Shown: positions 2,484 through 18,730, numbered from the stretch's first letter. The stretch is DNA of 19,839 nt from a virus (IMGVR_UViG_2778261687_000006:1-19839); one strand, 5' to 3'. Notes: generated from the letters alone by a model not told the origin. Made by a program: numbers and translations.

Positions 2484-3301
2484 ATGTACATATCCTGTTT
2501 GCGTGCCCACTCAGGGCGTTTAATGATTTCCACACCGCCCCATTCATCATTGATGCGGCATTCGTGATAGGTATTCAGATCCCGGCGGAACAGAGCGTGC
2601 CCGGCATCGACATCCTGCGCATCCAGCTCGAACACGCGTACCGGATACCGACCACAATCAATGCTTTCGCTCACGGCAAGAAAGAAAAAACCATGCGGCT
2701 GACCAGTAACCCTCATTGCGCCTTCGCGGTACATTGCGTCCTGCACGTGGTAGCGGAATTCCTCGATGTGGCGTGCAAAACGGTCCATATCTGCAACCTT
2801 TTTCACGTCGACGATCACGTTGTGCTCGTTCAGCCATTTGTCTGGACGAATTCGGCACAACTCACCCGTCTCTTCATCGTTCCAGTACATTGATGCTTCG
2901 CAGTAACCAGGTGCTTCCAACATCCAGCGTGCCGCCGGGTGAGCCATTGCGCTATCACGCATCAGCTCCAGTTTCCGCCACTGCTCGGCATCAAGTACCG
3001 TAATCCCCATATCCGCCACATCACGAAGAAATGCCTCTTCGTCAGCTTTACCTTGTTTCGTCCGACGATCGAATTTCGGTGAAACAATGAAGCGTTTGTC
3101 GAACTCTCTAGGCTCCAGAAGCAGACAGTGCAATGCGGTTCCCATATCCAGTGCAGACTTTTTCTCTTCGTCTTCTGGTGCTGCCTGAACCCATTTAAGA
3201 AGCGCCGGATTCTTGGCAACCATGTCCAGTTGCGACTTACTCACGCCGTCACCGGCGTGGTAGTCCTCATTGCTGATGTCGAAATAGATGCCAGTATTCA
3301 T
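2480..3301 (-). CDS. Phage PD-(D/E)XK exonuclease (YqaJ-like viral recombinase nuclease)
   Basis: 273 aa; N-terminal ISNEDYHAGDGVSKSQLD and a D...E.K-like core (RIRPDKW ... IVDVKKV), typical of YqaJ/lambda-Exo-like nucleases found upstream of RecT. Gene overlaps both neighbours. Confidence 0.8.
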   Translation of the reverse strand: MNTGIYFDISNEDYHAGDGVSKSQLDMVAKNPALLKWVQAAPEDEEKKSALDMGTALHCLLLEPREFDKRFIVSPKFDRRTKQGKADEEAFLRDVADMGITVLDAEQWRKLELMRDSAMAHPAARWMLEAPGYCEASMYWNDEETGELCRIRPDKWLNEHNVIVDVKKVADMDRFARHIEEFRYHVQDAMYREGAMRVTGQPHGFFFLAVSESIDCGRYPVRVFELDAQDVDAGHALFRRDLNTYHECRINDEWGGVEIIKRPEWARKQDMYI

Positions 3302-3504
3302 AACTTAACCTTGTATTCGTTCTGCTTGTTGGAACGGGTTCCATCGTGGAAATATATTGCGCTCCTGGTTACCTCTACCCATTTGCGACGTTCAAGCTCA
3401 GCGATGAACCAAGAAACCTTCGATCTTGAGATACCAAGAATCTTTGCCATATCTCGGATGCTGTGTTTTCCACCTCGCAGCAATGAGAGGAGTGTTGGTT
3501 TCAT
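3298..3504 (-). CDS. Small HTH / winged-helix DNA-binding protein
   Basis: 68 aa; HSIRDMAKILGISRSKVSWFIAELERRKWVEV looks like a helix-turn-helix. Start ATG 3502-3504 overlaps the stop of the upstream gene; stop overlaps the exonuclease start. Confidence 0.5.
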   Translation of the reverse strand: MKPTLLSLLRGGKHSIRDMAKILGISRSKVSWFIAELERRKWVEVTRSAIYFHDGTRSNKQNEYKVKL

Positions 3505-3800
3505 GCCGCGTCCCTCTGCCCATCAAGCTGATCAGCCAGATCCCAGCGGGCGATAATTGCCATTGCCTCGCGCCGGTAGGCATCCATTAGTTCTTCGAAC
3601 TCAGGGCTGTCTTTAGCGGCCTCCAGTACTTCCTGGCGAACGCCTTTAACTGTTACAACGTCGAAAGTTGATGCCAGTTGATGAAGCCGGATACTCTCAA
3701 TCAGTTCAACTTGTCGGTCATATAGCTGTTCTGACAGACGGTAGTCCTTGTCGAATGCCAGCATGATTTTTTGAAGATTTTTCTGCTGATTAACGTTCAT
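3501..3800 (-). CDS. Hypothetical early phage protein (99 aa)
   Basis: ORF in the 3501..3815 frame; preferred start is the ATG at 3798-3800 (MNVNQQ...), preceded by GGAGG at a good spacing. No family recognised. Confidence 0.5.
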   Translation of the reverse strand: MNVNQQKNLQKIMLAFDKDYRLSEQLYDRQVELIESIRLHQLASTFDVVTVKGVRQEVLEAAKDSPEFEELMDAYRREAMAIIARWDLADQLDGQRDAA

Positions 3801-3802
3801 TA

Positions 3803-3955
3803 TCAGCCCTCCCATATCTCGTTATCGTTGGCCACATCGCGAGCTTCTTTGCTGACGAAAGCCCACTTAATGCCTTCCTGTAAGGTGCGGAACTTCCAGC
3901 TCATGAATCCGCATGCAGTAACGCAGTACCAACCGTTGATGATTTTCCACTGCAT
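3803..3955 (-). CDS. Small 50-aa ORF, first gene of the leftward early operon; not in the ORF track
   Basis: Hand translation MQWKIINGWYCVTACGFMSWKFRTLQEGIKWAFVSKEARDVANDNEIWEG; GAGG 9 nt upstream; stop TGA 3803-3805 lies 2 nt from the next start (TGATAATG). Confidence 0.3.
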   Translation of the reverse strand: MQWKIINGWYCVTACGFMSWKFRTLQEGIKWAFVSKEARDVANDNEIWEG

Positions 3956-3974
3956 AACTTGTTACCTCGGTCTG

Positions 3975-3989
3975 TTACCGTTTAGGTAA
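3975..3989. promoter_or_regulatory. Dyad operator-like site TTACCGTTTAGGTAA
   Basis: Inverted half-sites TTACC / GGTAA with a 5-bp spacer, overlapping the start of the leftward transcript. Confidence 0.5.
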
Positions 3990-4017
3990 TAATTATGCGT
4001 ATGTGGTTTGATGTCAA
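3989..4017 (-). promoter_or_regulatory. Candidate leftward early promoter (pL-like): -35 TTGACA at 4012-4017 (minus strand), -10-like TAATTA near 3989-3994
   Basis: Perfect TTGACA on the minus strand, about 16 bp spacer, A/T hexamer; flanked by dyad sites at 3975-3989 and 4037-4051. Confidence 0.4.
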
Positions 4018-4036
4018 TAGATATGAGTTAAAAAAA

Positions 4037-4051
4037 TTACCCGTTAGGTAA
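4037..4051. promoter_or_regulatory. Dyad operator-like site TTACCCGTTAGGTAA
   Basis: Same TTACC-N5-GGTAA dyad, upstream of the pL-like -35. Confidence 0.5.
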
Positions 4052-4060
4052 TCGAATAGG

Positions 4061-4086
4061 CAATAAAAAAGCCGCCATAAGGCGGC
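4061..4086 (-). terminator. Rho-independent terminator for the repressor-like gene
   Basis: On the minus strand: GCCGCC-ttat-GGCGGC hairpin followed by TTTTTTATTG, directly downstream of the stop of the 4109..4693 gene. Confidence 0.7.
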
Positions 4087-4108
4087 TTACTTACTGAAAA
4101 ATATGGTT

Positions 4109-4693
4109 TTATTGTTTGTTTTTTTCGTTCTGGTTGATGACAAATTCAATGTAACTTTCGATCTTTGCTTTCTCGGTTTCGGGTAACAATGCGTAGCGCG
4201 AGCGATCATAGTTGATGGTCGCAGGGTCGTGCGGGTGAATCAGTAATTCATAGCCGTGACGCCCGAATGCGGATGCAACATTCTCCAGGGTGGAAATGGA
4301 AACGCTGACCTCATTGTTTAACAGGCGGCTGATTGTCACCTGGGCGACGCCGGATGCGCGGTGTAGTTTTCCCTGCGTTGAAAGGTCGCGGCTTTCGCTC
4401 ATCCAGCGTTCCAGGTTGTGAGCCGCCAACTGACCAATGTCGCTTGGGCCGACAGGCTGAAAACCTTCCTGAGAAAGCGAGCGATCGATATCAAGCCAGT
4501 TACGGGGTTTATTGGCGGCAGCTTCAATTTTTCGTGCAACCTGGTCGCCGATAACCTTCTTGCCAAGAGCCCAGCGGTTTACCAGATTTGCCTGAGTTCC
4601 AAGTTTTTCAGCCATCCGCGTCTGAACACCATTGAATTCACGGTCGATCAAGTCGTTGAGATTTTGCCTGCGGACGTCCTGGATACTTTTCAT
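4109..4693 (-). CDS. Phage repressor-like protein with two XRE-type HTH domains, no peptidase S24 domain evident
   Basis: 194 aa; two HTH-like segments (TRMAEKLGTQANLVNRWALGKKVIGDQVARKIEAA and LHRASGVAQVTISRLLNNEVSVSISTLENVASAFG). Divergent from a Cro-like gene with operator repeats between. No Ala-Gly/Ser/Lys autocleavage signature seen. Confidence 0.65.
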   Translation of the reverse strand: MKSIQDVRRQNLNDLIDREFNGVQTRMAEKLGTQANLVNRWALGKKVIGDQVARKIEAAANKPRNWLDIDRSLSQEGFQPVGPSDIGQLAAHNLERWMSESRDLSTQGKLHRASGVAQVTISRLLNNEVSVSISTLENVASAFGRHGYELLIHPHDPATINYDRSRYALLPETEKAKIESYIEFVINQNEKNKQ

Positions 4694-5122: not shown

Positions 5123-5133
5123 CATATCTATTC

Positions 5134-5148
5134 GTACCTCAAAGGTAA
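5134..5148. promoter_or_regulatory. Dyad operator-like site GTACCTCAAAGGTAA
   Basis: TTACC-N5-GGTAA family member just after the Cro terminator; an ATATGGTT box follows at 5160-5167. Confidence 0.45.
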
Positions 5149-5161
5149 TAAAAAACCAAAT

Positions 5162-5422
5162 ATGGTTGATCTTTTTTTTGTGTCAGCACAAAATAACCGT
5201 AATCCCAATACCAATAACAGGGCTTACCATGGAAATCATTACACGTATTTCGCTGTGATGCTCGCCACCGGAGAGATGGAACTGCACGAAGTGAAAGGTT
5301 TCTGGACCGACGACGCCAGGGTGAAAACCAAAGTCGCCGCAGATCAGTATCCGTTCCGAATCATCGGGGTAACGGTTAAACCAAAGAAAGCAGGTGGTGG
5401 CTGGAACATCGAAGAGTTCTGA
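5162..5422 (+). CDS. Hypothetical small protein; start codon uncertain (ATG 5162, or internal ATGs giving about 48-55 aa)
   Basis: ORF track entry; the first ATG lies inside the conserved ATATGGTT box and lacks an RBS. Coding status doubtful. Confidence 0.3.
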   Translation: MVDLFFVSAQNNRNPNTNNRAYHGNHYTYFAVMLATGEMELHEVKGFWTDDARVKTKVAADQYPFRIIGVTVKPKKAGGGWNIEEF

Positions 5423-6810: not shown

Positions 6811-6837
6811 GCCGCCAACTATGGCGGCTTTATTTTG
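6811..6837 (+). terminator. Terminator-like hairpin upstream of terS
   Basis: GCCGCC-aactat-GGCGGC followed by TTTATTTTG; same stem sequence as the 4061-4086 terminator. Confidence 0.5.
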
Positions 6838-6843
6838 CATGGT

Positions 6844-6872
6844 ACTATTACCACAACGGTAACTATTACCAC
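6844..6872 (+). repeat. Tandem direct repeat ACTATTACCAC (6844-6854 and 6862-6872) immediately upstream of terS
   Basis: GGTACTATTACCACAACGGTAACTATTACCACGG read directly; includes an inverted GGTAA-cta-TTACC arrangement. Confidence 0.8.
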
Positions 6873-6879
6873 GGTGGTT

Positions 6880-7476
6880 ATGATGCCTGCTGAACCTAAA
6901 ACCTATAAACGCAAATCAACGCAATTTAAGCCACTAACAGCAATGCAGGAGGCTTATTGCCAGTCATACATCAAAACGCCTGAAAACCAGACTCAGGCAG
7001 CGATTAACGCAGGATTTTCCCCAAATACAGCGGCAGTTAAAGCCAGTGTCATGATGCGCGATGAACGCATTCAAAAACGGATTGCCGAGTTGATGGAGGA
7101 GCGCAACAAACGAATGCGCGTCAGTGCTGATTACGTTCTCATGCGCCTGGTGGAGATCGACCAGATGGACGTGATTGATATCCTCAACGACGATGGGAGC
7201 CTTAAGCCAATCCGCGAGTGGCCGAAAATCTGGCGCACTACGCTTAGTGGCTTTGATCTGTCGTCGACCATCATGAACATGAACGAGGATTCGATAGAGA
7301 CAATCCTCAAAAAAATTAAATGGCCTGACAAGGTGAAGAACCTTGAGCTGATTGGTAAGCATGTTGATGTCAACGCGTTCAAAGAACGTCTGGATGTTAA
7401 TGTGAATGTGACAATTGCTGATCGCATAGCAGCAGCCAGGAAGCGACTCAAAGAACGTCAGGATGGTAATCAGTGA
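6880..7476 (+). CDS. Terminase small subunit (TerS)
   Basis: About 198 aa from the ATGATG at 6880; positioned immediately upstream of and overlapping the large terminase gene; basic helical N-terminal region (TAVKASVMMRDERIQKRIAEL) consistent with a DNA-binding small terminase. The track's TTG-start extension translates a direct-repeat region. Confidence 0.65.
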   Translation: MMPAEPKTYKRKSTQFKPLTAMQEAYCQSYIKTPENQTQAAINAGFSPNTAAVKASVMMRDERIQKRIAELMEERNKRMRVSADYVLMRLVEIDQMDVIDILNDDGSLKPIREWPKIWRTTLSGFDLSSTIMNMNEDSIETILKKIKWPDKVKNLELIGKHVDVNAFKERLDVNVNVTIADRIAAARKRLKERQDGNQ

Positions 7477-8948
7477 CAGATACAGCGTTATCTCCTGAAG
7501 AGCAGTTGATCGAGGATATTGCAGGGTTCACTCACGATCCGCTTGGCTATGCCCTCTATGCGTTCCCGTGGGGGGAAGAGGGGACTGAACTGGCACATGC
7601 TACCGGTCCACGTCAGTGGCAGGCTGATGCGTTCCGAGAGATACGTGATCACCTGCAGAATCCAGAGACGCGCTATCAGCCGCTTATGCTGGCACGTGCT
7701 TCTGGTCACGGTATTGGTAAATCCGCATTCATCTCAATGCTGATCAACTGGGGCATGTCCACTTGCGAGGATTGTAAGGTCGTGGTGACCGCCAATACCG
7801 ACAACCAGCTACGAACGAAGACCTGGCCGGAAATTATCAAGTGGTCGAACCTTGCTATCACGAAAGACTGGTTCACCTGTACCGCTACCGCGATGTACAG
7901 CAATGATCCTGGGCACGACAAGCGGTGGCGAGCTGACGCAATCCCCTGGTCTGAGCACAATACTGAGGCGTTCGCCGGACTACACAACGAGCGCAAACGT
8001 ATCATCGTGGTATTCGATGAAGCGTCGAACATTGCGGATCTGGTGTGGGAAGTTGCCGAGGGTGCGCTTACGGACGAAGACACTGAGATTATCTGGGTGG
8101 CGTTCGGAAACCCGACGCGTAATACCGGACGTTTCCGAGAATGTTTCCGCAAATATAAACACCGCTGGAAAACTGCGCAGATTGACAGCCGGACGGTTGA
8201 AGGCACTAACAAACAGCAGTTGCAGAAATGGGTTGATGACTACGGGGAAGACAGCGACTTCGTTAAAATCCGTGTGCGTGGCATATTCCCTGATGCATCT
8301 GAATTGCAGTTTATCCCTACCGGTCTTACTGACGAGGCAATGAAACGGGTGGTAACCGCTGCGCAGGTGGCACATGCTCCGGTGATAATCGGCGTTGACC
8401 CGGCATACTCCGGCGTTGATGACGCGGTGATATACCTGCGGCAGGGGCTGCACAGTAAGGTGCTGTGGACTGGCAACAAGACCACCGACGATCTGATTAT
8501 GGCGAAGCGTATCGCTGACTTTGAAGACCAGTATCAGGCCGACGCGGTGTTCATCGACTTCGGTTACGGTACTGGCCTGAAGTCAATCGGTGACGACTGG
8601 GGGCGCACATGGCAACTTGTTCCGTTCGGTGGCGCGTCTACTGACCCGCAGATGCTCAACAAGCGTGGGGAGATGTTCAACTCATGTAAGACATGGCTGA
8701 GGCTGGGCGGGATGCTGGATGACCAGGAAACAGCGGACGACCTGTCGACGGCAGAGTACAAAGTTCGCGTGGACGGTAAAATCGTTATCGAACCGAAGGA
8801 AGATATCAAAGAGCGACTTGGGCGTTCGCCGGGGAAAGGCGATGCGCTATTGCTGACGTTTGCTTTCCCTGTGTCGAAGCGCCTGCGAATTCCCGGTCAG
8901 CAGAACCAGCAAGGCAAGGCCATCACAGATTACGACCCGTTTGCGTGA
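7473..8948 (+). CDS. Terminase large subunit (TerL), ATPase plus nuclease
   Basis: 491 aa; Walker A-like ASGHGIGKSAF, Walker B-like RIIVVFDEASN, C-terminal acidic nuclease-like motif VIIGVDPAYSG. GTG start overlaps the terS stop (GTGA). Confidence 0.85.
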   Translation: MTDTALSPEEQLIEDIAGFTHDPLGYALYAFPWGEEGTELAHATGPRQWQADAFREIRDHLQNPETRYQPLMLARASGHGIGKSAFISMLINWGMSTCEDCKVVVTANTDNQLRTKTWPEIIKWSNLAITKDWFTCTATAMYSNDPGHDKRWRADAIPWSEHNTEAFAGLHNERKRIIVVFDEASNIADLVWEVAEGALTDEDTEIIWVAFGNPTRNTGRFRECFRKYKHRWKTAQIDSRTVEGTNKQQLQKWVDDYGEDSDFVKIRVRGIFPDASELQFIPTGLTDEAMKRVVTAAQVAHAPVIIGVDPAYSGVDDAVIYLRQGLHSKVLWTGNKTTDDLIMAKRIADFEDQYQADAVFIDFGYGTGLKSIGDDWGRTWQLVPFGGASTDPQMLNKRGEMFNSCKTWLRLGGMLDDQETADDLSTAEYKVRVDGKIVIEPKEDIKERLGRSPGKGDALLLTFAFPVSKRLRIPGQQNQQGKAITDYDPFA

Positions 8949-10424: not shown

Positions 10425-10501
10425 TGGCGTGGCATGCAGGATTCGAACCTGCGACCAACCGCTTAGAAGGCGGTTGCTCTGTCCAACTGAGCTAATGCCA
10501 C
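10425..10501 (-). tRNA. tRNA-Arg (anticodon UCU), phage-encoded
   Basis: Hand-folded cloverleaf on the minus strand: acceptor GTGGCAT/ATGCCAC, D-arm GCTC-AGTTGGACA-GAGC, anticodon arm ACCGC-CTTCTAA-GCGGT (U33, anticodon TCT, A37), variable loop TGGTC, T-arm GCAGG-TTCGAAT-CCTGC, discriminator G, encoded CCA. Acceptor and anticodon stems differ from host argU as I recall it. Confidence 0.85.
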
Positions 10502-10823
10502 AACGCTGAGAGCACTTAGCCTGTTAAGGCGCCACACTTTGTCGCGGCTCCATAAATGCTCTCATCGTTGCACCCTCGTCTCTTCCGAGGCGTCACACCG
10601 AATCGCCGGGATGGTGAATCCCCGTGCGCGGAATAAAACCGCTCGACTTGCACATTCCGGCTACCTGGTTCGTTTGCCCGAGCAAGGGAGGGTGCCCCTT
10701 AAACGTATCCAGACCGCTATCGTCGCATGTGCCATACGCCGTACTGCTCAACATAAAAGCTCACTCCACCTGTTCAATTTAACGACAAGCCAGTCAGGTT
10801 AGTAACCGGAATGAACTCTTTTG

Positions 10824-10838
10824 TTACCTGAAAGGTAA
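10824..10838. promoter_or_regulatory. Dyad operator-like site TTACCTGAAAGGTAA
   Basis: Lies beside a minus-strand TTGACA (10855-10860) and about 70 bp upstream of a -10-like GATAAT (10899-10904) for the plus-strand operon. Confidence 0.45.
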
Positions 10839-10928
10839 TAATTTGCGCATTAAATGTCAACTGTCTACGACAAGTAAATCATATGTGGTTAAATTGGTGA
10901 TAATTTAATTGCGTACGGAGTCATTGAT

Positions 10929-11186
10929 ATGTGCATGGGTAGCTCACCATCAGTGCCTGCAACACCAGAAGTTCAGGCAGCACCACAGGAGCAGGATGCC
11001 GCCGTTGTTGATGCCCGCGACGAAGAAACTCGTCGCCGTCGCGCTGCTGCTGGTCGTAGTTCTACGCTGCTTGAGGCGGTGCAGAACCGCATGAACGATA
11101 TGTTCAATAAGTCGAATCTCTACCAGTCGCTGCCGGTGTTCAGCGGTATCTGCGTGTTAACTACTCCGTCGCAACTGGCCCACTAA
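10929..11186 (+). CDS. Hypothetical protein (85 aa); may be part of a frame-disrupted larger gene
   Basis: RBS GGAG 8 nt upstream of the ATG. A second frame stays open from 11111 to 11267 without any start codon and translates to protein-like sequence. Confidence 0.4.
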   Translation: MCMGSSPSVPATPEVQAAPQEQDAAVVDARDEETRRRRAAAGRSSTLLEAVQNRMNDMFNKSNLYQSLPVFSGICVLTTPSQLAH

Positions 11187-11279
11187 CGGCTGGCGAATTC
11201 ACTGCTGGTATCAGTCTTGATGTTGATGCCAATACGCCGTATCCGATCCGCTCAAAAGTAACTGGTTAAGGTGATATCG

Positions 11280-11630
11280 ATGTCAGGTGAGAAACCAAGA
11301 TACCGCGTTCTGCGCCTCTCTCATATCCATAACACTCTGTGGCCGGAGGGGGCAGAAATCGAATACGAAGGTGAGCCTGGTAGCGCACTGGAACCTGTTA
11401 ACGATGCAGCCAGACAGGCAAAAGCAAAGGTAGCAGGAAAGGTGTCAATGGCAGCAACCAGTACCAAAATCATCAACGATGTGTCAGATGATGGTGAGCT
11501 GGATAAGCTCCGTGAAGAGTACGAATTGCTCTTTAACGAGAAGCCACACCATAACGCCAAAGCCGAAACGCTCCGCGAGAAGATCGCAGATAACCGGTTC
11601 TGGTATTCAGCGTGGAACATGGAAAGGTGA
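11280..11630 (+). CDS. Hypothetical protein (116 aa)
   Basis: ATG at 11280 with RBS GGTGA 6 nt upstream; acidic, helical-looking sequence. The +1 frame stays open across its last 150 nt. Confidence 0.5.
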   Translation: MSGEKPRYRVLRLSHIHNTLWPEGAEIEYEGEPGSALEPVNDAARQAKAKVAGKVSMAATSTKIINDVSDDGELDKLREEYELLFNEKPHHNAKAETLREKIADNRFWYSAWNMER

Positions 11631-11679
11631 ATTAACGAGAAGTGTTTTCCTGTTTAAATCGTTCCCTATCTCGGTGGTT

Positions 11680-12240
11680 ATGCGTCACTGGTCACGCGCT
11701 ATGGGTATGCCGTCTGCTGGTGGGCGTGCGGCATATATTGCGACGTTTATTGCCAGTACGACCATTCTTGGAGCTTTGTCGCAGCAACTTAACGACCTTG
11801 CGTCTGGTCGTAATCCTCGCGAGATGACAGGAGAAGATGCCGCAAAATTCTGGCTTGGTGCTCTATTGAAAGGTGGTGGTCTTGGCCTTTACGGTGACTT
11901 TTTATTGTCAGATCACACTAGGTACGGAAGCGGCGCGCTGGCGTCGATGCTTGGCCCGGTGGCTGGTCTGGTTGATGACGTAGTGAAGATTGCTCAGGGC
12001 ATACCGTTAAATGCTGTGGAAGGGAAGAGTGAGCAGACTGGTGGTGATCTGGTGAAGCTGGGGAAAGGTTTGATGCCAGGTGCGAATCTCTGGTACTTGA
12101 AGGCGGCTCTCGATCACATGATCTTTAACCAGATGCAGGAGTATTTTTCACCAGGCTATTTGCGTAAAATGGAGCAACGTTCGAAGAAAGAGTTTAACCA
12201 GACATACTGGTGGCGACCTCAGGATGTCACTCCGCAATAA
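11680..12240 (+). CDS. Hypothetical protein with Gly-rich hydrophobic segments; start poorly defined (ATG 11680 or GTG 11674), possible frameshift fusion with the upstream ORF
   Basis: Long open frame 11479..12240, protein-like only after about 11640; no well-spaced RBS at the candidate starts. Confidence 0.45.
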   Translation: MRHWSRAMGMPSAGGRAAYIATFIASTTILGALSQQLNDLASGRNPREMTGEDAAKFWLGALLKGGGLGLYGDFLLSDHTRYGSGALASMLGPVAGLVDDVVKIAQGIPLNAVEGKSEQTGGDLVKLGKGLMPGANLWYLKAALDHMIFNQMQEYFSPGYLRKMEQRSKKEFNQTYWWRPQDVTPQ

Positions 12241-12249
12241 GGATGAGAA

Positions 12250-12390
12250 ATGATTGCTTTTATTCTTGTTGTATTTGTGCTTGTTGCCCTTGGCGTTATG
12301 AATCGTAAATGTATCATTGAAGACGGTGAATTTGCTGTAGCAGTTGTTTTGATATTATCTGGTGTAGCAGGGTACATAGGTTTGTCATAG
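12250..12390 (+). CDS. Small hydrophobic peptide (46 aa, two predicted membrane segments); not in the ORF track
   Basis: Hand translation MIAFILVVFVLVALGVMNRKCIIEDGEFAVAVVLILSGVAGYIGLS; RBS AGGA upstream; stop TAG at 12388-12390. Confidence 0.35.
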   Translation: MIAFILVVFVLVALGVMNRKCIIEDGEFAVAVVLILSGVAGYIGLS

Positions 12391-12397
12391 CTTGAGT

Positions 12398-12409
12398 GTG
12401 ACATGTCAC
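12398..12409. repeat. Perfect 12-bp palindrome GTGACATGTCAC, copy 3 (extended form TGTGACATGTCACA)
   Basis: Read directly; in the convergent gap between the 12250..12390 ORF and the 12434..12691 gene. Confidence 0.9.
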
Positions 12410-12433
12410 AGGCCGCTTTCGCGGCCCTTAAAT

Positions 12434-12691
12434 TTACCGGATTTGTTTTCGTAATTGTTCGGCACAATAGTCGAGATGTGTTTGCAGATCCTGCATAGAC
12501 ATCTGTGAGCTGGTGACGTAGTTAATCAGTGCAGTCAGTTCGGCAAGTGGGCCATCGACATTAAATCCATCCTTATCGAGATCCCGGAGTAATTTCATCA
12601 AGTGCGATCCCTCCACCAGTGACCTGACGCCTCCCGGCGTGTGAATCCTTTCGGTAAATCCGTCTTCCAGTGGATAGTGATACTGCTGCAT
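12434..12691 (-). CDS. Hypothetical protein (85 aa from the ATG at 12691)
   Basis: ORF track 12434..12757 with a GTG at 12757; the internal ATG at 12689-12691 has GGAG about 8 nt upstream. Divergent from the tailspike gene. Confidence 0.45.
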   Translation of the reverse strand: MQQYHYPLEDGFTERIHTPGGVRSLVEGSHLMKLLRDLDKDGFNVDGPLAELTALINYVTSSQMSMQDLQTHLDYCAEQLRKQIR

Positions 12692-12767
12692 CTTATCTTC
12701 TCCATGCAATAACTGTATATTTATGCAGTAGCAAATAATTTGTTTGCTATCCAGCACGTTTTGCGAA

Positions 12768-12782
12768 TCACCTGAAAGGTAA
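12768..12782. promoter_or_regulatory. Dyad operator-like site TCACCTGAAAGGTAA
   Basis: In the divergent intergenic region between the 12434..12691 gene and the tailspike gene; followed by the ATCCATATGTGGTT box (12809-12822) and a -10-like TAGAAT (12833-12838). Confidence 0.45.
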
Positions 12783-12886
12783 TATCTGTTCGTATTTATG
12801 GTTTATCTATCCATATGTGGTTTTTCAGGTAATAGAATAACCGGATATGCGGCGCAACGGGTGCTGCGACTATCTGGAGATTTAAC

Positions 12887-15571
12887 ATGACGGTCTCAAC
12901 CGAAGTTGACCATAACGAATATACAGGTAATGGCGTTACGACTTCATTTCCTTATACCTTTCGAATTTTTCAGAAGTCAGACCTGGTTGTGCAGGTTGTT
13001 GATCTGGATGAAAATATAACCACTCTTGTGCTTGATACTGATTATTCGATTACAGGTACTGGTGGATACACGGGGGGGAATGTTGTTTTATCAACTGCTT
13101 TAGGCAATGGGTATAAGATTTCTATTTCAAGAGAGTTGCCGGTTACCCAAGAAACAGACCTAAGGAACCAGGGGAAGTTTTTTGCAGAAGTGCATGAGGA
13201 TGCATTTGATAAGTTAACTATGCTTGTTCAGCAGGTAAGAAGTTGGTTTAGTCTGTCGTTAAGAAAACCATCCTTTGTAGCCAACTATTATGACGCCCTG
13301 GGCAACTATATCAGAAATCTCAGGGATCCATCTCGGCCGCAAGATGCTGCTACAAAGAACTATGTAGACAGTATTTCTGAAACCAATCTCAACAGAACGC
13401 TAAGAACACCTGAACCTATACCCACACTTCCATCTGCCGCTGTCAGGGCGAACAAGATAATAGCCTTCGATAATAGTGGGTCTCCTTTTGTAACATTGCC
13501 GCCATCTGGTTCTGCCACTGATGTTCTTGTTGAATTAGTGAAACCAACAGGTGCCGGGTTATCAGGTTATAGCGATTCTATCCAGTATCCTGACGGTACT
13601 GTTGGTAGTGCCATTAAAGATCAGAATTTCAGGAAAAAAATAATCTACAAACTTCCATTTCAGTTCGCTGGGTATTCTGATGCACTGGCGGCAATTGGAG
13701 CTGGAAGCATCATATACCCGCAGGGTGCTGACTATGATGATGATGGTCTACTCTTCATTAACTATGTGCCTAATGCTGGAGGGGCGCTTAGGGTTATAGT
13801 TGTTTATAACCAGGCAGGAGAGCAAGTAACGTGGTTTTATAGTCCAAACAGTAGTAATCAGTCTGTGGCTATATATGGCGGAAGTTCATCACGTAGATTG
13901 TATGACAGACGTCTTGGGGATGATTTTGTTTATTATTATGACATAACCACATTACCCGCAGCAGGTAGCACGCTTTCAGGGCACACAATAACGACAATTC
14001 AGTCGGCTGGATCACATATGTGCATTGAGGGTAATTTACTCTTCTGCACATTAAACGCGACACCAGTAGGATTGTCACAATCACAGACTGTTATAAATTC
14101 TTATCGTCTTGATACAGGTGAGAAGCAGGGAACAATAAATGTCTCTCAGATGCTTACAGGGTTTGCAACTCCAGAGCTCTCCCCTACCTACTATTACATG
14201 GTATGGAAAATTCAGGGTATAGCATACAAAAATGGGATCCTTCATATAGGCGTAGGTGGCAGTTATCGTCCTACATTTGATGATGCAAAATACCCTGTTC
14301 ATGATTACGGAGTCCTCAGAGTGTCACTCTCTGGTGAGTTAATAGACCACTCTGTTGTGAAATCAGATAAGTTGATGACTTATCTGGCATCAAACGGTTG
14401 CACCGTCTCAAGAACAGAGTCAGAGGGATGTTTCAAGCACCCTGACGGCACTATCCATTCAATTCTTATCGGTGATATGGCTGAATCATCTCCTAGCACA
14501 CCCAATGGCATTGTTATAATGAGGGAGTTTTCAAGAGATGGGTTTGACATGCTGGATGCCGCTTCAGGATACTGCCCGATACCAACATATGGATTTAATA
14601 GGCTCATGCGTTCGGAGCATGGGGAACTGCGCGATCCAGTCTTAAATACAGTCTTCAGCAGTGTTACTCAAATTCTTGATTTAATGGCTTCATTAAACAT
14701 AACTGAGTTCTCTTGGTTTTCAACCATTGCTCCTTCGCTCACCACGATACCTGGTCTTAACTACGTAATAGGACAAATTTACCATGTTACTAATATGAAC
14801 AATGCAGGATTCATTATTGAATCCTCCGGTACTGTACTTGGGCTAGAAATTTATTCCGTAGTTGGCAGAATTGGGTCATGGACAGCTACAAGGCGCTCAT
14901 TGTCAGGAACAAAGCTTAATATTAATAATTCAGGTGGTTTAGGCAAAATATCATTTACAACGTCAACAGGAAAAGAAGTTGGCATCGCTCAAATAAACTA
15001 TACCGGAACCTCTACGCCTCTTGTTATCGGCTCAGGGGGTACTTTAAACCCTAATGCTATTTTCTTCTTCACAAATCCGACAGTGACAAGTGAAAGTGGT
15101 GGGACTCAATCTCTTCAGATTTACAGTGATCAGGTATTGCCTGGCGTCGCTAGCGCGCAGTCTAACGGGAGTGCATCATTTAAATGGACTCAGGTCTACG
15201 CCGATTCTGGTTCCATTAACACATCTGACAGAAGAAAGAAGACAGATTTCGAGGATATAAGTGAAGCCGAAAAGCGTGTGGCTATCAAGATTAAGGGAAT
15301 GATTTGTCGGTACAGAATGAAGGATGCGGTAGCTATTAAAGGCGATGGCGCAAGATATCATATAGGTGCAATTGTCCAGGATGTTATCTCTGCGTTCGAG
15401 GATGAAGGGCTAGATCCCATGCGTTATGGGATGGTTTGCTACGATAAGTGGGATAAGAAGGAACCAGAATATGATGAAAATGGAATCATGACATTCTCAG
15501 GTTGCGAAGCTGGTGATGGTTACTCTTTGAGATATGATGAGATGTTATGTTTCATTATTTCTGCTATTTAA
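12887..15571 (+). CDS. Tailspike / tail fibre protein with C-terminal intramolecular chaperone (peptidase S74-like self-cleaving domain)
   Basis: 894 aa; N-terminus MTVSTEVDHNEYTGNGVTTSFPYTFRIF resembles the T7-gp17-type particle-binding domain and, from memory, epsilon15-like tailspikes; Ser/Thr/Gly-rich central region; C-terminal ...INTSDRRKKTDFEDISEAEKRVAIKIK... matches the endosialidase-type chaperone domain. RBS GGAG. Confidence 0.85.
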   Translation: MTVSTEVDHNEYTGNGVTTSFPYTFRIFQKSDLVVQVVDLDENITTLVLDTDYSITGTGGYTGGNVVLSTALGNGYKISISRELPVTQETDLRNQGKFFAEVHEDAFDKLTMLVQQVRSWFSLSLRKPSFVANYYDALGNYIRNLRDPSRPQDAATKNYVDSISETNLNRTLRTPEPIPTLPSAAVRANKIIAFDNSGSPFVTLPPSGSATDVLVELVKPTGAGLSGYSDSIQYPDGTVGSAIKDQNFRKKIIYKLPFQFAGYSDALAAIGAGSIIYPQGADYDDDGLLFINYVPNAGGALRVIVVYNQAGEQVTWFYSPNSSNQSVAIYGGSSSRRLYDRRLGDDFVYYYDITTLPAAGSTLSGHTITTIQSAGSHMCIEGNLLFCTLNATPVGLSQSQTVINSYRLDTGEKQGTINVSQMLTGFATPELSPTYYYMVWKIQGIAYKNGILHIGVGGSYRPTFDDAKYPVHDYGVLRVSLSGELIDHSVVKSDKLMTYLASNGCTVSRTESEGCFKHPDGTIHSILIGDMAESSPSTPNGIVIMREFSRDGFDMLDAASGYCPIPTYGFNRLMRSEHGELRDPVLNTVFSSVTQILDLMASLNITEFSWFSTIAPSLTTIPGLNYVIGQIYHVTNMNNAGFIIESSGTVLGLEIYSVVGRIGSWTATRRSLSGTKLNINNSGGLGKISFTTSTGKEVGIAQINYTGTSTPLVIGSGGTLNPNAIFFFTNPTVTSESGGTQSLQIYSDQVLPGVASAQSNGSASFKWTQVYADSGSINTSDRRKKTDFEDISEAEKRVAIKIKGMICRYRMKDAVAIKGDGARYHIGAIVQDVISAFEDEGLDPMRYGMVCYDKWDKKEPEYDENGIMTFSGCEAGDGYSLRYDEMLCFIISAI

Positions 15572-15600: not shown

Positions 15601-16588
15601 ACTTGGCTATCACCCTATTTAACAAAGGAGTTTTTGAAAGTATCACAGCTATCAACAGGGACGCAAAGACATAAAATATAGTTGCAACAGGTATTCCCCA
15701 TGCATAATTTGATACTGGAGCTATTTTCCATGTTATAAATATAATAATAGGATGTATAAGATAAATTCCAAATGCATATTCGGAAATTAGAGTTACAAGT
15801 TTATTTGCATTTTTGCTTATTCTGTCTGCGTATCCAATGCAGGCGCAGGTTGTTGCTATTGCTGTCATGCCAACAATGGGGCTAAAGTTGCTTAGGTTTA
15901 CTCCTTTGATCCCATGAATCAATATAGCCTTATTTGTAAAGACACATATAACCGCAAGGATAACAGCAGTTAACGAAATGAAAGCGCGTAATTTTATGAT
16001 ATGGCTTTCAAGTCGTGCAACTATACATCCGGCAAAAATATAGAACATTAATGTACTTACAAATGGAATATCTATAGATGGTGCATTAGGAATAAAATTC
16101 TTTAGTTGTGGGTATAAAGAATTTCCATAGAATAGAATTAAAAATATCATCACGTTATACCGCAAATCCATGCGTTGGCATCCAATAATTATCATCGGGA
16201 GAAACATGTAAATCGCAATATAATGATACATAAACCATAGATGAACAGCAGATGGCTTCATGATATTAAAGCTGCTTACTGAAGTATCTTTAAATATAAT
16301 GTAATAAGATGCATATATTACCCACCAAAATACAAGAGGGACAAATAAGACATTAAAACCCTTTTTAATGTAATCATGGAATTCGAATTCCTTTTTATGG
16401 TAGTAAAGAAACCCTGTTATAACTATGAAAATACCAATGCATTGCTTTGATATGGCGCTATATACGTTAGCCCAATCCCAATCAGGCGAAGACTTTGCAC
16501 CAACTGGACCAGCGGCAACATGCAGCAACACCACCAGCACAATGGCGATGAAACGAGCTAAAACTACGCCATAGTTCTTCTCATTCAT
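15599..16588 (-). CDS. Acyltransferase family 3 integral membrane protein, likely O-antigen acetyltransferase (lysogenic conversion)
   Basis: 329 aa, about 10 hydrophobic segments; N-terminal VLARFIAIVLVVLLHVAAG matches the acyltransferase-3 signature (R-x-x-x-H in TM1); visibly AT-rich; sits directly after the tailspike gene as serotype-converting acetylases do in P22-like/Sf6-like phages. Confidence 0.8.
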   Translation of the reverse strand: MNEKNYGVVLARFIAIVLVVLLHVAAGPVGAKSSPDWDWANVYSAISKQCIGIFIVITGFLYYHKKEFEFHDYIKKGFNVLFVPLVFWWVIYASYYIIFKDTSVSSFNIMKPSAVHLWFMYHYIAIYMFLPMIIIGCQRMDLRYNVMIFLILFYGNSLYPQLKNFIPNAPSIDIPFVSTLMFYIFAGCIVARLESHIIKLRAFISLTAVILAVICVFTNKAILIHGIKGVNLSNFSPIVGMTAIATTCACIGYADRISKNANKLVTLISEYAFGIYLIHPIIIFITWKIAPVSNYAWGIPVATIFYVFASLLIAVILSKTPLLNRVIAK

Positions 16589-16641
16589 TTTAATATTTAT
16601 CCAATATTTTTAATGGGTTCCACAATCATTAACTACAATAT

Positions 16642-16656
16642 ATACCCATAAGGTAA
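16642..16656. promoter_or_regulatory. Dyad operator-like site ATACCCATAAGGTAA
   Basis: Between the acyltransferase and lysis genes; followed by ATCCATATATGGTT (16685-16699) and a -10-like TATGAT (16706-16711). Confidence 0.45.
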
Positions 16657-16752
16657 TTTAGTTAAGAGTTATCAGAGGTAAACTTATCCATATATGGTTT
16701 ATTGTGTATGATGGACTTACCAACTAAGGGGGTTCATTATGCACAGTAAACG

Positions 16753-17166
16753 GTGGCTGATATGTCAGCTCAGCTAACCAGTGAGTCTTTAAATCAGTGG
16801 CTTAGCATGGGTTCTCTGGCTGCTGTCATTGTCGGGGTTCCTCCAGAGGTCGCTCTTGGTGCTTTATCCGGCGCGGTAATATTTATTACCTCTGCCGTTG
16901 AGTATCCAATACGCCGTCGGGTTCTCCTATCGATGCTCAGCTTTCTCTGCGGGCTACTCTTCTACAAACCGACTGCATCAATTCTTATCGGCGTAGCCAG
17001 CATGATCCCAACTATCACGCAGGACTCATTCGAGAAAGGGATCGTCTTTTCTGCTGGCGCGTTCGTGTCGGCAATAGTCGCAGTACGTATTGGAATCTGG
17101 CTCTATCACCGCTCAGACAATCCACGCGATTTAATCCCTGGGAGAAAAGACGATGACAACTCATGA
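16753..17166 (+). CDS. Holin-like membrane protein (about 3 TM segments, charged C-terminus); start uncertain (GTG 16753 or ATG 16762)
   Basis: First gene of the lysis cassette; hydrophobic segments and C-terminal [19 protein letters not shown] strong SD AAGGGGG (16725-16732) is positioned for an ATG at 16739 in another frame (12-codon ORF). Confidence 0.5.
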   Translation: MADMSAQLTSESLNQWLSMGSLAAVIVGVPPEVALGALSGAVIFITSAVEYPIRRRVLLSMLSFLCGLLFYKPTASILIGVASMIPTITQDSFEKGIVFSAGAFVSAIVAVRIGIWLYHRSDNPRDLIPGRKDDDNS

Positions 17167-17461
17167 TCTGCTTTTACTTATTGCCAATGCAGTTATTTGT
17201 ACTGGCATAGCAATTCGCGTTGTCACATTCCGGCGTAACGGATCTCAACATCGAAGATGGGGAGGGTGGCTTGCTTATTTCCTTATTGTTGCTGCGGCCA
17301 GTATTCCTGTTCGTGTCGTCTATGCAATCTGGTTACGCACGCCAATGGCTGTGGATTTATCTGAGGTTATTATCAACGCTGTCATGCTTGCCGCTGTTAT
17401 TAAAACACACGGTAACGTTGTTCAGATTTTCAAAATATCGAGGTCTAAACATGGAGATTAA
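17153..17461 (+). CDS. Second holin/antiholin-like small membrane protein
   Basis: 102 aa with three hydrophobic segments; RBS GGGAG; overlaps both neighbours, immediately upstream of the endolysin. Confidence 0.5.
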
Positions 17462-18080
17462 ACAATTCCAGCGAGCTGCTGGTATTAGCGAGGCGCTGGC
17501 CGCACGCTGGTTCTCGCATATAACTTCTGCGATGAAAGAGTTTGGTATCAGAAAACCCGAAGATCAGGCAATGTTTATTGCTCAGGTCGGGCATGAGTCT
17601 GGAGGCTTCACCCGGTTGCAGGAGAATTTCAACTACAGCGTAACTGGACTGGCTAACTTCGTTCGGGCTGGGCGTCTCACTCAGGGACAGGCCAACGCAT
17701 TGGGGCGACGCGCAGGAGAACCACCATTGCCACTTGAGCGCCAGAGAGCGATTGCCAATCTGGTGTACAGCAAACGCATGGGGAACAATGCCCCCGGCGA
17801 TGGCTGGAATTACCGAGGTCGCGGACTTATCCAGATTACCGGTTTGAATAACTATCGTGACTGCGGAAACGGCTTGAAAGTTGACTTGCTGGAGAATCCT
17901 GAACTGCTGGCGCAGGACGAATACGCGGCTCGTAGCGCGGCGTGGTTCTTCTCCAGCAAAGGTTGCATGAAGTATACAGGCGATATTGCACGTGTAACTC
18001 TGATTATCAATGGTGGCCGGAACGGCATCGACGACCGGCGCGCGCGGTACATCACTGCCAGTAAGGTGCTGGCGGTATGA
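17451..18080 (+). CDS. Endolysin, glycoside hydrolase family 19 (chitinase-like lysozyme)
   Basis: 209 aa from the ATG at 17451 (RBS GAGG); GHESGGF catalytic region and [16 protein letters not shown] matching the GH19 signature; located between holin-like and spanin genes. Confidence 0.85.
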
Positions 18081-18574
18081 TCTGGGCATTCGCAAAAGCA
18101 TACAGGAAACAGTTGGTTATCATGGTGATGCTTGCTGTTCTGGTCATATCAGGAGTTGTAGCTTGGAATGCACACGGCAGTCGTCAGTACGACGCCGGGT
18201 ATGCGCAGGCACAGGAAGATCAGAAACAGGCTAATGATAAGGCCAGGTCACAACGTGATCAGGAGAAAACACAAATTGAACGTGAAGCACAATCCCGTAT
18301 CGATGTGGCGCGTGTTGATGCTGAGCATGCTAATGCCGCTGCTGACAGCCTGCGCGCCGAGCTTGACAAAACCAAGCGACTCGCCGAACACTATACCGGA
18401 TCTTTCCCCACTGGCACGCCAGCCAGCAAGGTCATCGGTGTGCTCGCCGACATGCTTGAAGAAAGCAATCGAGTTTACAACGCAACAGCAGCTGAGGCTG
18501 AAAAGTATCGGATTGCAGGAGAATCCTGCGAACAGCAATACGATTCACTGAAGAAGCAAAAATCGTGGTACTGA
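18077..18574 (+). CDS. Rz-like i-spanin
   Basis: 165 aa; N-terminal TM ([18 protein letters not shown]) followed by a charged coiled-coil periplasmic domain; start overlaps the endolysin stop (ATGA). Confidence 0.7.
18303..18551 (+). CDS. Rz1-like o-spanin lipoprotein, embedded in the +1 frame of the Rz gene
   Basis: Embedded ORF with signal [17 protein letters not shown] (lipobox LTAC) and a Pro-rich mature region ([25 protein letters not shown]). Start codon choice uncertain (18303, 18318 or 18333). Confidence 0.5.
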   Translation: MWRVLMLSMLMPLLTACAPSLTKPSDSPNTIPDLSPLARQPARSSVCSPTCLKKAIEFTTQQQLRLKSIGLQENPANSNTIH

Positions 18575-18704
18575 TTTCCGGTGACGGTATATAAAACGGT
18601 ACTAGAAAAATTAAGTTTTGGAAAAATGTTATCACTCAATTGGTTATGATTGTCGTAAATAATTGAGTGGGAATGATTTGACCCTGCACTATGAATGAAC
18701 AAAA

Positions 18705-18730
18705 CCCTCTGTTACTACAGAGGGTTTTTT
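18705..18730. terminator. Bidirectional rho-independent terminator after the lysis cassette
   Basis: CCCTCTGT-tact-ACAGAGGG hairpin followed by TTTTTT, preceded by AAAA on the other side. Confidence 0.7.

Follow-up and report, generated by a model that had tools for sequence, protein, structure and literature searches.

Phages lambda, P22, 21, T4 and MS2 time their lysis by translational devices that act where the holin or lysis gene starts; to our knowledge, nothing of the kind has been reported for phages of the epsilon15 group or for the widespread Phage_holin_8/Phage_holin_3_7 gene pair. In lambda, the sdi stem-loop, an RNA structure upstream of the first lysis gene, S, tunes initiation and lysis timing, and the dual-start mechanism of lambda, P22 and phage 21 depends on added positive charge. 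In the hok/mok system of plasmid R1 and its chromosomal and prophage relatives, a membrane-toxin gene with a poor start is translated only via the overlapping upstream mok frame, whose strong start is shut off by structure in the RNA until this is remodelled. Expression of the MS2 lysis gene L, according to the scanning model of Adhin and van Duin, needs ribosomes that terminate at a nearby out-of-frame stop codon and then begin again at a start codon some nucleotides up- or downstream. In T4 gene e (lysozyme), and also in soc, 49 and I-TevI, a hairpin hides the translation initiation region (TIR) and late transcripts are without the inhibitory arm; the late promoter of gene e lies in the DNA for the 5′ strand of the hairpin that sequesters its ribosome-binding site (RBS); only read-through transcripts are silenced (PMC3014915). 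Here we analyse the leader of a lysis cassette in a 19,839-nucleotide stretch of viral DNA (IMGVR_UViG_2778261687_000006:1-19839, the window), in which two TIRs stand in tandem on a conserved leader of approximately 75 nt, the first strong and locked in a hairpin, the second weak and open.

The cassette (16762–18574, + strand) is that of an epsilon15/phiV10-type temperate podophage (Uetakevirus) prophage of Escherichia coli, located beside the host gene yfgI. Megablast against phage records returned 35 matches, with 80–92% nucleotide identity over 72–93% of 2.17 kb, all of them to epsilon15/phiV10-like records, including epsilon15, phiV10, SPN1S, Tyrion, PAT1, TL-2011b and PAS61. The annotations of epsilon15, phiV10, Tyrion, PAT1, SPN1S and TL-2011b list the same five genes, encoding a membrane protein (gp23, the homologue of g1 in the window), a holin (g2), an endolysin, Rz and Rz1, and the first gene is always the 405-nt version starting at the ATG equivalent to 16762. 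The cassettes of epsilon15, phiV10, SPN1S and Tyrion also share the gene order and the overlaps, with 80–92% nucleotide identity and no essential difference, and the SPN1S endolysin (PDB 4OK7) is nearly identical to that of the window. The gene order, the position next to attP/int and the DNA similarity to the type phages are all those of a Uetakevirus lysis cassette, which is carried at the same place by 532 of 5,426 complete E. coli genomes. The cassette itself is already known, being annotated in several well-studied phages and containing an endolysin with a crystal structure.

The order given in the original prediction, two holin-like genes followed by a glycoside hydrolase family 19 (GH19) endolysin and Rz with Rz1 embedded in the +1 frame, can be read directly in the sequence, and every junction overlaps (14, 11 and 4 nt for g1/g2, g2/endolysin and endolysin/Rz, respectively). 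Phage annotations, Pfam and PHROGs matches and the Rz1 alignment agree with its description of an epsilon15-like cassette with embedded spanins; PHROGs calls the five products, in order, holin, holin, endolysin, Rz-like spanin and Rz-like spanin. The leader had been described there only in part: the hairpin that buries the upstream initiation site, and the invariant GGTGG that serves as g1's own Shine–Dalgarno (SD) sequence, are absent from that account. The leader device, a mini open reading frame (mini-ORF) with a putative hairpin gate, appears to be undescribed, although the hairpin itself is flagged in one database record. The mini-ORF is annotated in none of the Uetakevirus records compared, no annotation or discussion of it was found in the phage records and literature searched, and the Prokaryotic Genome Annotation Pipeline (PGAP) annotation of the E. 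coli genomes leaves out both the mini-ORF and Rz1.

The strongest start-associated SD of the cassette, AAGGGGG, serves an ATG at 16739, six bases past it, which opens 12 codons (peptide MHSKRWLICQLS) closed by TAA at 16775–16777 and overlapping both GTG 16753 and ATG 16762 of g1. This had been correctly predicted from the start, with the exact SD lying at 16726–16732 and the formerly included 16725 being the preceding T. Predicted pairing with the 3′ end of 16S ribosomal RNA amounts to −12.5 kcal/mol for the mini-ORF, compared with −7.9 for g1, −7.3 for g2, −7.1 for the endolysin and −6.3 for Rz. The g1 frame is closed upstream by TAA 16747–16749 and is open from GTG 16753, itself contained in GGTGG, with its first ATG at 16762. 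Because shuffled windows contain approximately two combinations of a strong SD and an ATG per strand per 20 kb, a single such combination is not significant by itself, and conservation makes up the whole of the case for the mini-ORF.

Related loci were collected from viral contigs, genomes and phage records (the scan of genome contigs yielding six), and 97 of them could be scanned. The starts of 95 were tabulated (58 unique upstream sequences); the other two (L095, which is epsilon15, and L096) were covered by the leader analysis instead. A strong SD with an ATG located 22–23 nt upstream of the g1 ATG was found in 97/97 loci, as was GGTGG-N5-ATG at the g1 start. Among 52 unique aligned leaders the mini-ORF ATG has no variants, whereas its stem partners vary in 8, 4 and 1 sequences; an A for the G of this ATG would improve pairing, yet it is seen in none of them. 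The G residues of the SD vary in 1–8 of the 52 leaders and remain SD-like, as GGGGG, GGAGG or GGGAG across lineages. GGTGG is invariant in 52/52, whichever frame the mini-ORF occupies, and the most variable leader columns are the two spacers, between the SD and its ATG and between GGTGG and the ATG at 16762 (the 5 nt preceding it). Twice in succession, an SD with little or no variation and an ATG with none flank a variable spacer, which is the mark of two tandem initiation regions. Judged by this pattern, the mini-ORF start is a conserved TIR.

The frame and the length of the mini-ORF are not conserved between lineages. In class 1 leaders, those of the window and of relatives with protein identities as low as 72%, it has 12 codons ending at a TAA made from g1 codon 5 (CTA, TTA or ATA) and codon 6 (ACN). 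Class 2 leaders carry a 1-nt deletion that places it in the other frame, with 14 codons (peptide MHINGGKHVSSTNQ), and in phiV10-type leaders it has 6 codons (MHSKRW), with its stop 2 nt before the g1 ATG (TGG TAA TT ATG). Counted from the g1 ATG, the last base of the stop codon is thereby at −3, +15 or +22 according to the lineage, so that in all lineages the mini-ORF stops within 22 nt of the g1 start, a spacing that suits termination–reinitiation. Codon 5 of g1 is NTA in 59/59 unique coding sequences, followed by ACN, whereas NTA makes up only 20% of the other g1 leucine codons, and other invariant leucine positions use up to five synonymous codons. This constraint fits selection on the overlapping mini-ORF stop, a fit that is weakened by shared ancestry.

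The few substitutions in the mini-ORF peptide are all non-synonymous. A functional leader peptide, acting by attenuation or arrest, was considered and rejected, given that peptide, frame and length differ between lineages (MHSKRWLICQLS, MHINGGKHVSSTNQ and MHSKRW), and the peptide itself is probably functionless to judge from these differences. What is conserved at the leader is the strong SD, the ATG and termination near the g1 start, not the peptide. The original suggestion that a leader peptide sets holin translation therefore stands in one half, as the conserved initiation region makes translational control plausible, and fails in the other, a functional peptide being unlikely.

The second original suggestion, that the overlap betrays a frameshift in the first gene, does not hold. 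Either a sequencing error or a programmed frameshift would join the mini-ORF to g1 and yield an N-terminally extended protein, for which the overlap itself and the basic residues (K, R) of the mini-ORF could be cited. The layout is, however, the same in every relative scanned, across independent assemblies; g1 homologues are 133–134 amino acids long when counted from the ATG equivalent to 16762, and the g1 frame is closed by the TAA at 16747–16749. Moreover, class 2 uses the other frame and the phiV10 mini-ORF stops after six codons. A programmed event was rejected specifically, as 16750–16775 contains no X XXY YYZ slippery heptamer and the frame relation is not constant. As far as sequence comparison reaches, we regard a frameshift of either kind as extremely improbable.

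Every relative has a GTG in the g1 frame, three codons before the g1 ATG, which raises the further alternative of a dual start similar to that of lambda S, in which GTG 16753 would give a longer antiholin and ATG 16762 a shorter holin. Some gene callers do start upstream, maybe at this GTG, and the 138-amino-acid entries P0026 and P0058 begin MVxFM. The extension (AD, VT, VI, VV, VA or EN) contains no conserved basic residue in any of the lineages, the GTG lacks an SD within usable distance (−0.3 kcal/mol), and GGTGG makes better sense as the SD of ATG 16762. A lambda-like dual start was rejected on the missing basic residue and SD, and we consider it very unlikely.

The upstream initiation site is embedded in a hairpin: the G residues of the SD and ATG 16739 sit in its 3′ arm, and GGTGG begins directly past its foot. 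The surrounding 98 nt (16684–16781, + strand) fold at −40.3 kcal/mol (z −5.7), whereas the reverse complement folds at −19.3 kcal/mol (z −0.5). This strand asymmetry follows from several G–U pairs and points to an RNA-level element on the sense strand. In the 52 unique leaders, 92.2% of cells hold standard pairs, compared with 38–56% when the partners are slid by 1–3 columns. Five pairs are changed on both sides (for example, GC:40/AU:8), with compensatory GC-to-AU and UA-to-AU replacements. Class 2 leaders share the topology with a weaker stem (about −18 kcal/mol), and in L093 and L094, the two most diverged leaders, only part of the hairpin persists. Partition-function folds of the 73-nt leader show the mini-ORF ATG paired with p > 0.8 in 48/49 unique sequences and a median paired probability of 0.71 for the 7-nt SD window, while the g1 ATG is essentially unpaired (median 0.01). 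The hairpin is thus of the RBS-sequestering type known from T4 gene e, but the start that it sequesters is that of the mini-ORF, not that of g1. Rfam 15 contains no family for it, with nothing meaningful at expect values (E) up to 10 in 16560–16860; the only Rfam match at the gathering threshold in the window is a transfer RNA (tRNA) elsewhere.

In a group of gtrAB-carrying prophages (L097–L109), an unrelated 17-bp hairpin occupies the same position (for example, L098 1930–2003) and pairs g1's own GGUG SD. On the predicted folds, a leader hairpin at the first lysis gene is a feature that recurs with different sequences.

The hairpin's 5′ arm contains the −10-like hexamer TATGAT (16707–16712), a candidate late promoter. 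The hexamer reads TATAAT in phiV10 and CATAAT, CATGAT or CGTAAT in class 2. It is located 7 nt after a 14-nt motif, ATCCATATATGGTT, at which the conserved leader block begins; upstream of the motif the leader is mosaic between relatives. The motif has four copies in the window (5154–5167, 10877–10890, 12809–12822 and 16686–16699) and four in epsilon15 (L095; 2985, 19937, 24748 and 33749), all on the + strand and every one preceding a + strand gene group. Its recurrent form is A(A/T)YCATATRTGGTT, with a palindromic core CCATATATGG, and the 15-mer has 8 matches versus 0.6 expected. At the copies at 10877 and 12809, GATAAT and TAGAAT follow 8–10 nt later. The 14-nt motif is possibly a late-promoter or activator site.

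Each motif copy in the window lies within about 45 nt downstream of an operator-like inverted repeat of the type annotated as ‘repressor’ sites in epsilon15. These repeats stand upstream of four + strand gene groups (5133–5149, ~10823–10839, 12767–12783 and 16641–16657). The last, between the O-acetyltransferase gene and the lysis cassette, has no annotated counterpart at this place in epsilon15 and a putative regulatory role. The sole sigma-70-like promoter that the scan found in this intergenic region (16637–16665, − strand, TTAACT-17-TATATT) overlaps the repeat and is directed at the O-acetyltransferase gene and not at the lysis genes; it suits a lysogenic-conversion gene expressed from the prophage.

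Our preferred reading of the leader, held tentatively and with confidence slightly short of even, is a hairpin-gated upstream start coupled to g1, the gate being opened by a promoter inside the stem. The hairpin would gate TIR-1 (the strong SD with ATG 16739) upstream of TIR-2 (GGUGG with ATG 16762). On full-leader RNA, TIR-1 is locked in the 3′ arm of the 24-bp hairpin with the g1 AUG unpaired, and while the hairpin remains closed g1 output would be low, coming from its own weak SD alone. Once TIR-1 is open, ribosomes would load there, translate the mini-ORF across the weak g1 start, terminate a few codons on and re-initiate at the g1 AUG (termination–reinitiation coupling), giving more of the first lysis protein, for which homologue annotations predict a role as antiholin or holin partner. 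The late promoter belonging to the cassette would use TATGAT as its −10, with the transcript starting about 7 nt downstream, in the loop near 16719, so that the cassette's own transcripts would be without the 5′ arm and the gate would be open. RNA reading through from upstream would carry the full hairpin, and its lethal genes would be poorly translated, with possible cutting by RNase III. A stronger version, in which the leader is a transcript-origin sensor such that only RNAs from its own promoter expose TIR-1, and read-through RNA goes untranslated and is cleared by RNase III, seems to us rather unlikely; were it true, the sensor would set the antiholin-to-holin ratio, and hence the lysis clock, in a prophage family carried by approximately 10% of complete E. 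coli genomes.

Several observations weigh against this gate, every functional step of which we infer from sequence; transcript 5′ ends, ribosome footprints and mutants for these phages were not found in the literature and records searched. A sigma-70 scan of 16500–16760 found no + strand promoter, the −35 region of the candidate promoter is poor (TTATCC), and CGTAAT in some class 2 leaders is missing the key A of a −10. Covariation in the hairpin is modest (12 cells in 5 pairs), and with leader sequences this closely related, plain sequence conservation accounts for much of the pairing. Folding is weak in class 2 and in the most diverged leaders, at −14 to −22 kcal/mol with z of about −0.4 to −1.0. 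The hairpin of L097–L109 occurs without a strong-SD mini-ORF. The TAT of the −10-like hexamer is the pairing partner of the mini-ORF ATG, part of whose conservation could accordingly be a by-product. Ribosomes on the mini-ORF could, in addition, equally block initiation at g1.

The hairpin of L097–L109 and the ATG/TAT pairing also speak for a rival explanation, in which the hairpin is an RNA processing or stability element only, either an RNase III site or a 5′ stabiliser, and the SD-like run, the ATG and the mini-ORF are by-products. Cleavage of the stem by RNase III would take away what lies upstream, and the g1 SD would then stand on a free 5′ end. The stem of 22 + 2 bp has the length that RNase III requires (about 20 bp or more of double-stranded RNA), being shorter and weaker in class 2, L093 and L094, and the epsilon15 record NC_004775 labels the same place (24755–24817) ‘RNaseIII, mRNA processing’. 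The near-universal pairing of the mini-ORF ATG would, furthermore, mean that TIR-1 is rarely used in the full-length leader. The label is itself a prediction, however, and the arrangement of invariant SD, variable spacer and invariant ATG is that of a real initiation site. At the three pairs that involve the ATG, all substitutions are on the partner side; the G run stays SD-like in every lineage although A for G would pair better with U; and the NTA constraint at g1 codon 5 preserves the mini-ORF stop. We rate a role in processing or stability alone as rather unlikely.

The blocking of g1 by mini-ORF ribosomes can be developed into a further alternative, in which the mini-ORF is translated but acts negatively: ribosomes would occlude the g1 SD and AUG, lower g1 relative to g2 and in this way set the antiholin-to-holin ratio and the time of lysis. 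The anatomy is identical to that of the gate. The mini-ORF of classes 1 and 2 covers the g1 SD and start codon completely, and g2 has an SD of its own (GGGAGA), which makes its independence from g1 translation possible. The phiV10-type stop, 2 nt before the g1 ATG, is by contrast a classic coupling layout, the stops always lie within 22 nt of the g1 start, and less g1 could be obtained by simply weakening its start. Occlusion appears to us distinctly unlikely.

The gated, coupled start that we prefer can be set beside the systems described above. As in T4 gene e, the hairpin hides an initiation region; unlike gene e, the sequestered start is that of the mini-ORF, and the candidate promoter in the 5′ arm is a −10-like hexamer only. 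Unlike hok/mok, the locus has no antisense RNA and no 3′ processing signal, the product is a 134-amino-acid phage lysis protein, and in length the mini-ORF falls far below mok. Terminating ribosomes would come from a dedicated mini-ORF, whereas in MS2 they come from rare frameshifts in the coat gene. Unlike lambda S, with two in-frame starts for one gene, the leader has its upstream start in another frame, and the features of a dual start are missing. In its logic the leader device resembles T4 gene e, hok/mok and MS2 L. The transcript-origin sensor would join the logic of hok/mok to that of T4 gene e, a combination of which we know no description for the holin/antiholin genes of any temperate phage.

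The two membrane proteins encoded downstream of the leader had been linked to lysis in the original prediction, and this is borne out, as both score above Pfam holin-family thresholds and the pair recurs before endolysins. The g1 product matches Phage_holin_8 (PF16931) with 41.7 bits (cut-off 26.4, E 1.5e-10), distant relatives reach up to 108 bits against the same family, and the match to phrog_198 ‘holin’ has an E of 4.6e-40. The g2 product matches Phage_holin_3_7 (PF05449, DUF754) with 91.7 bits (cut-off 25.4, E 3.1e-26) and phrog_217 ‘holin’ (1.8e-34), and is a holin by annotation in epsilon15, phiV10 and SPN1S. Kyte–Doolittle hydropathy gives three hydrophobic segments and a charged C terminus for g1, and two to three segments and a basic tail for g2. 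Both thus have the structural features of holins, being small, with transmembrane segment(s) and a charged C terminus, and encoded next to the endolysin gene. Origin of g1 and g2 as paralogues was rejected, there being no sequence similarity between them.

The Phage_holin_8 and Phage_holin_3_7 genes, in this order, stand before endolysins of three different types, in podophage-like prophages of enterobacteria as well as in P2-like phages of Burkholderia. In L097–L109, in which g1 is 39% identical, the same pair is followed by a different endolysin and embedded Rz/Rz1; that endolysin has 158 amino acids and no Pfam match. In high-GC P2-like phages (L110–L114; Burkholderia KS14, KL3, phiE12-2 and others) the pair follows tail gene X and has other endolysin types downstream. 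Burkholderia phages KS5, KS14 and KL3 and the tailocin BceTMilo carry the same two families in the same order directly upstream of endolysin and Rz/Rz1, and differ from the window in their endolysins and in that the first gene follows gene X without an intergenic leader. In the high-GC relatives, no hairpin or mini-ORF is evident. The first gene has been called ‘putative antiholin’ and the DUF754 gene ‘holin’ in these Burkholderia homologues (Lynch et al., PMC3091744; BceTMilo, PMC5411513), both roles being predictions. Literature searches found no experimental paper on the regulation or function of gp23/gp24 homologues. A putative holin–antiholin pair formed by g1 and g2 is consistent with these earlier predictions and with the conserved pairing of the two genes.

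The endolysin matches Glyco_hydro_19 (PF00182) with 38.6 bits (cut-off 25.5) and the SPN1S endolysin structure with an E of 6.1e-117 over residues 1–208, its whole length. Its hydropathy profile contains no hydrophobic N-terminal segment, no window reaching 1.2, which excludes a signal or signal-arrest-release (SAR) segment in the profile and means that a true holin is needed. In its domain, its solved relative and the lack of a SAR segment it is a cytoplasmic GH19 endolysin. Before its ATG, the endolysin frame runs on without a stop for 80 codons and includes the code for a hydrophobic stretch (17220–17450); the corresponding open frame is 4–20 codons long in 63/86 relatives. A longer isoform starting at TTG 17271 with a hydrophobic extension was considered and dismissed as probably incidental, the open frame not being conserved. 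Inside g2, a G-rich run (GGGGAGGGTGG, 17257–17268), which encodes RWGGW, is as SD-like as the leader SD, and no conserved start was found behind it in the 86 relatives compared. A search of NCBIfam with the five cassette proteins returned no family beyond noise.

Rz matches DUF2514 (7.7e-22) and phrog_312 ‘Rz-like spanin’ (5.7e-51), and contains a single N-terminal transmembrane segment (residues 12–30). Rz1 lies wholly within Rz at a frame offset of 199 nt, equivalent to +1, the arrangement of an embedded two-component spanin. Its candidate starts are TTG 18276, preceded by the SD CAGGAGA, and ATG 18303. Rz1 matches phrog_11621 (2.5e-25) and aligns with the annotated Rz1 of epsilon15 and phiV10. 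The lipoprotein signal, which the original prediction had proposed to look for, is present as the lipobox LTAC, the Cys of which (codon 18351–18353) is conserved in both phages. Kongari et al. (PMC6139136) list this family, ‘Bcep176’, among the embedded spanins.

Table 1 Positions of the leader elements, cassette genes and neighbouring signals in the window
Feature	Position	Strand	Basis or remark
Operator-like inverted repeat, TATACC-N5-GGTAAT	16641–16657	.	Resembles epsilon15 ‘repressor’ sites ATTACC-N5-GGTAAT (NC_004775)
14-nt motif ATCCATATATGGTT, start of conserved leader block	16686–16699	+	Recurrence
Leader RNA hairpin, 22 + 2 bp, 6-nt loop	16697–16751	+	Folding, pairing conservation
−10-like hexamer TATGAT, candidate late promoter	16707–16712	+	Inside hairpin 5′ arm; 7 nt after motif
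SD AAGGGGGT of mini-ORF (AAGGGGG 16726–16732)	16726–16733	+	16S 3′ end pairing, conservation
Mini-ORF, 12 codons + TAA, overlaps g1 start	16739–16777	+	Conservation
GGTGG, g1's own weak SD, contains in-frame GTG 16753	16752–16756	+	Invariance, 16S pairing
g1, Phage_holin_8 membrane protein, epsilon15 gp23 homologue, putative antiholin/holin partner	16762–17166	+	Pfam, PHROGs
g2, Phage_holin_3_7 (DUF754) holin	17153–17461	+	Pfam, PHROGs, phage annotations
GH19 endolysin, cytoplasmic type	17451–18080	+	Pfam, PDB 4OK7
Rz, i-spanin	18077–18574	+	DUF2514, phrog_312
Rz1, o-spanin, inside Rz, +1 frame	18276 or 18303 to 18551	+	phrog_11621
Terminator-like hairpin, prophage/host junction, just before yfgI	18701–18728	+	Terminator scan

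Downstream of the cassette, similarity to epsilon15 ends near 18679–18701, and a terminator is annotated at the place in the epsilon15 attP region equivalent to the terminator-like hairpin. With this hairpin and the host genes yfgI and yfgH following, the cassette forms the edge of the prophage. The TL-2011b record (L007, NC_019445) likewise runs into host yfgI and yfgH at 3295–4365, and the yfgH-like lipoprotein gene is labelled ‘DNA methyltransferase’ there. At 11137–11895, the prophage is without about 15 kb of virion genes, encoding portal, protease, capsid, tail and injection proteins, that span 3.6–18.9 kb in epsilon15: the terminase (6837–8940) and the beginning of the gp3/gp4 region give way almost immediately to the end of a gp17-like gene and the tailspike. 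With these genes missing, the prophage looks defective, its tailspike, O-acetyltransferase and lysis cassette being intact. The interval 10800–12900 is found contiguous in no complete E. coli genome of the collection. A tRNA-Arg gene (anticodon TCT; 10425–10501, − strand) lies between the gp50-like gene and the head-gene promoter region.

In hundreds of E. coli genomes, both the mini-ORF and Rz1 escape standard annotation. If the gated start is real, the combination of hairpin, mini-ORF and coupled gene would be a compact natural part for the tightly closed expression of toxic proteins. It would allow the prophage to keep the lethal genes at its edge silent against read-through transcription.

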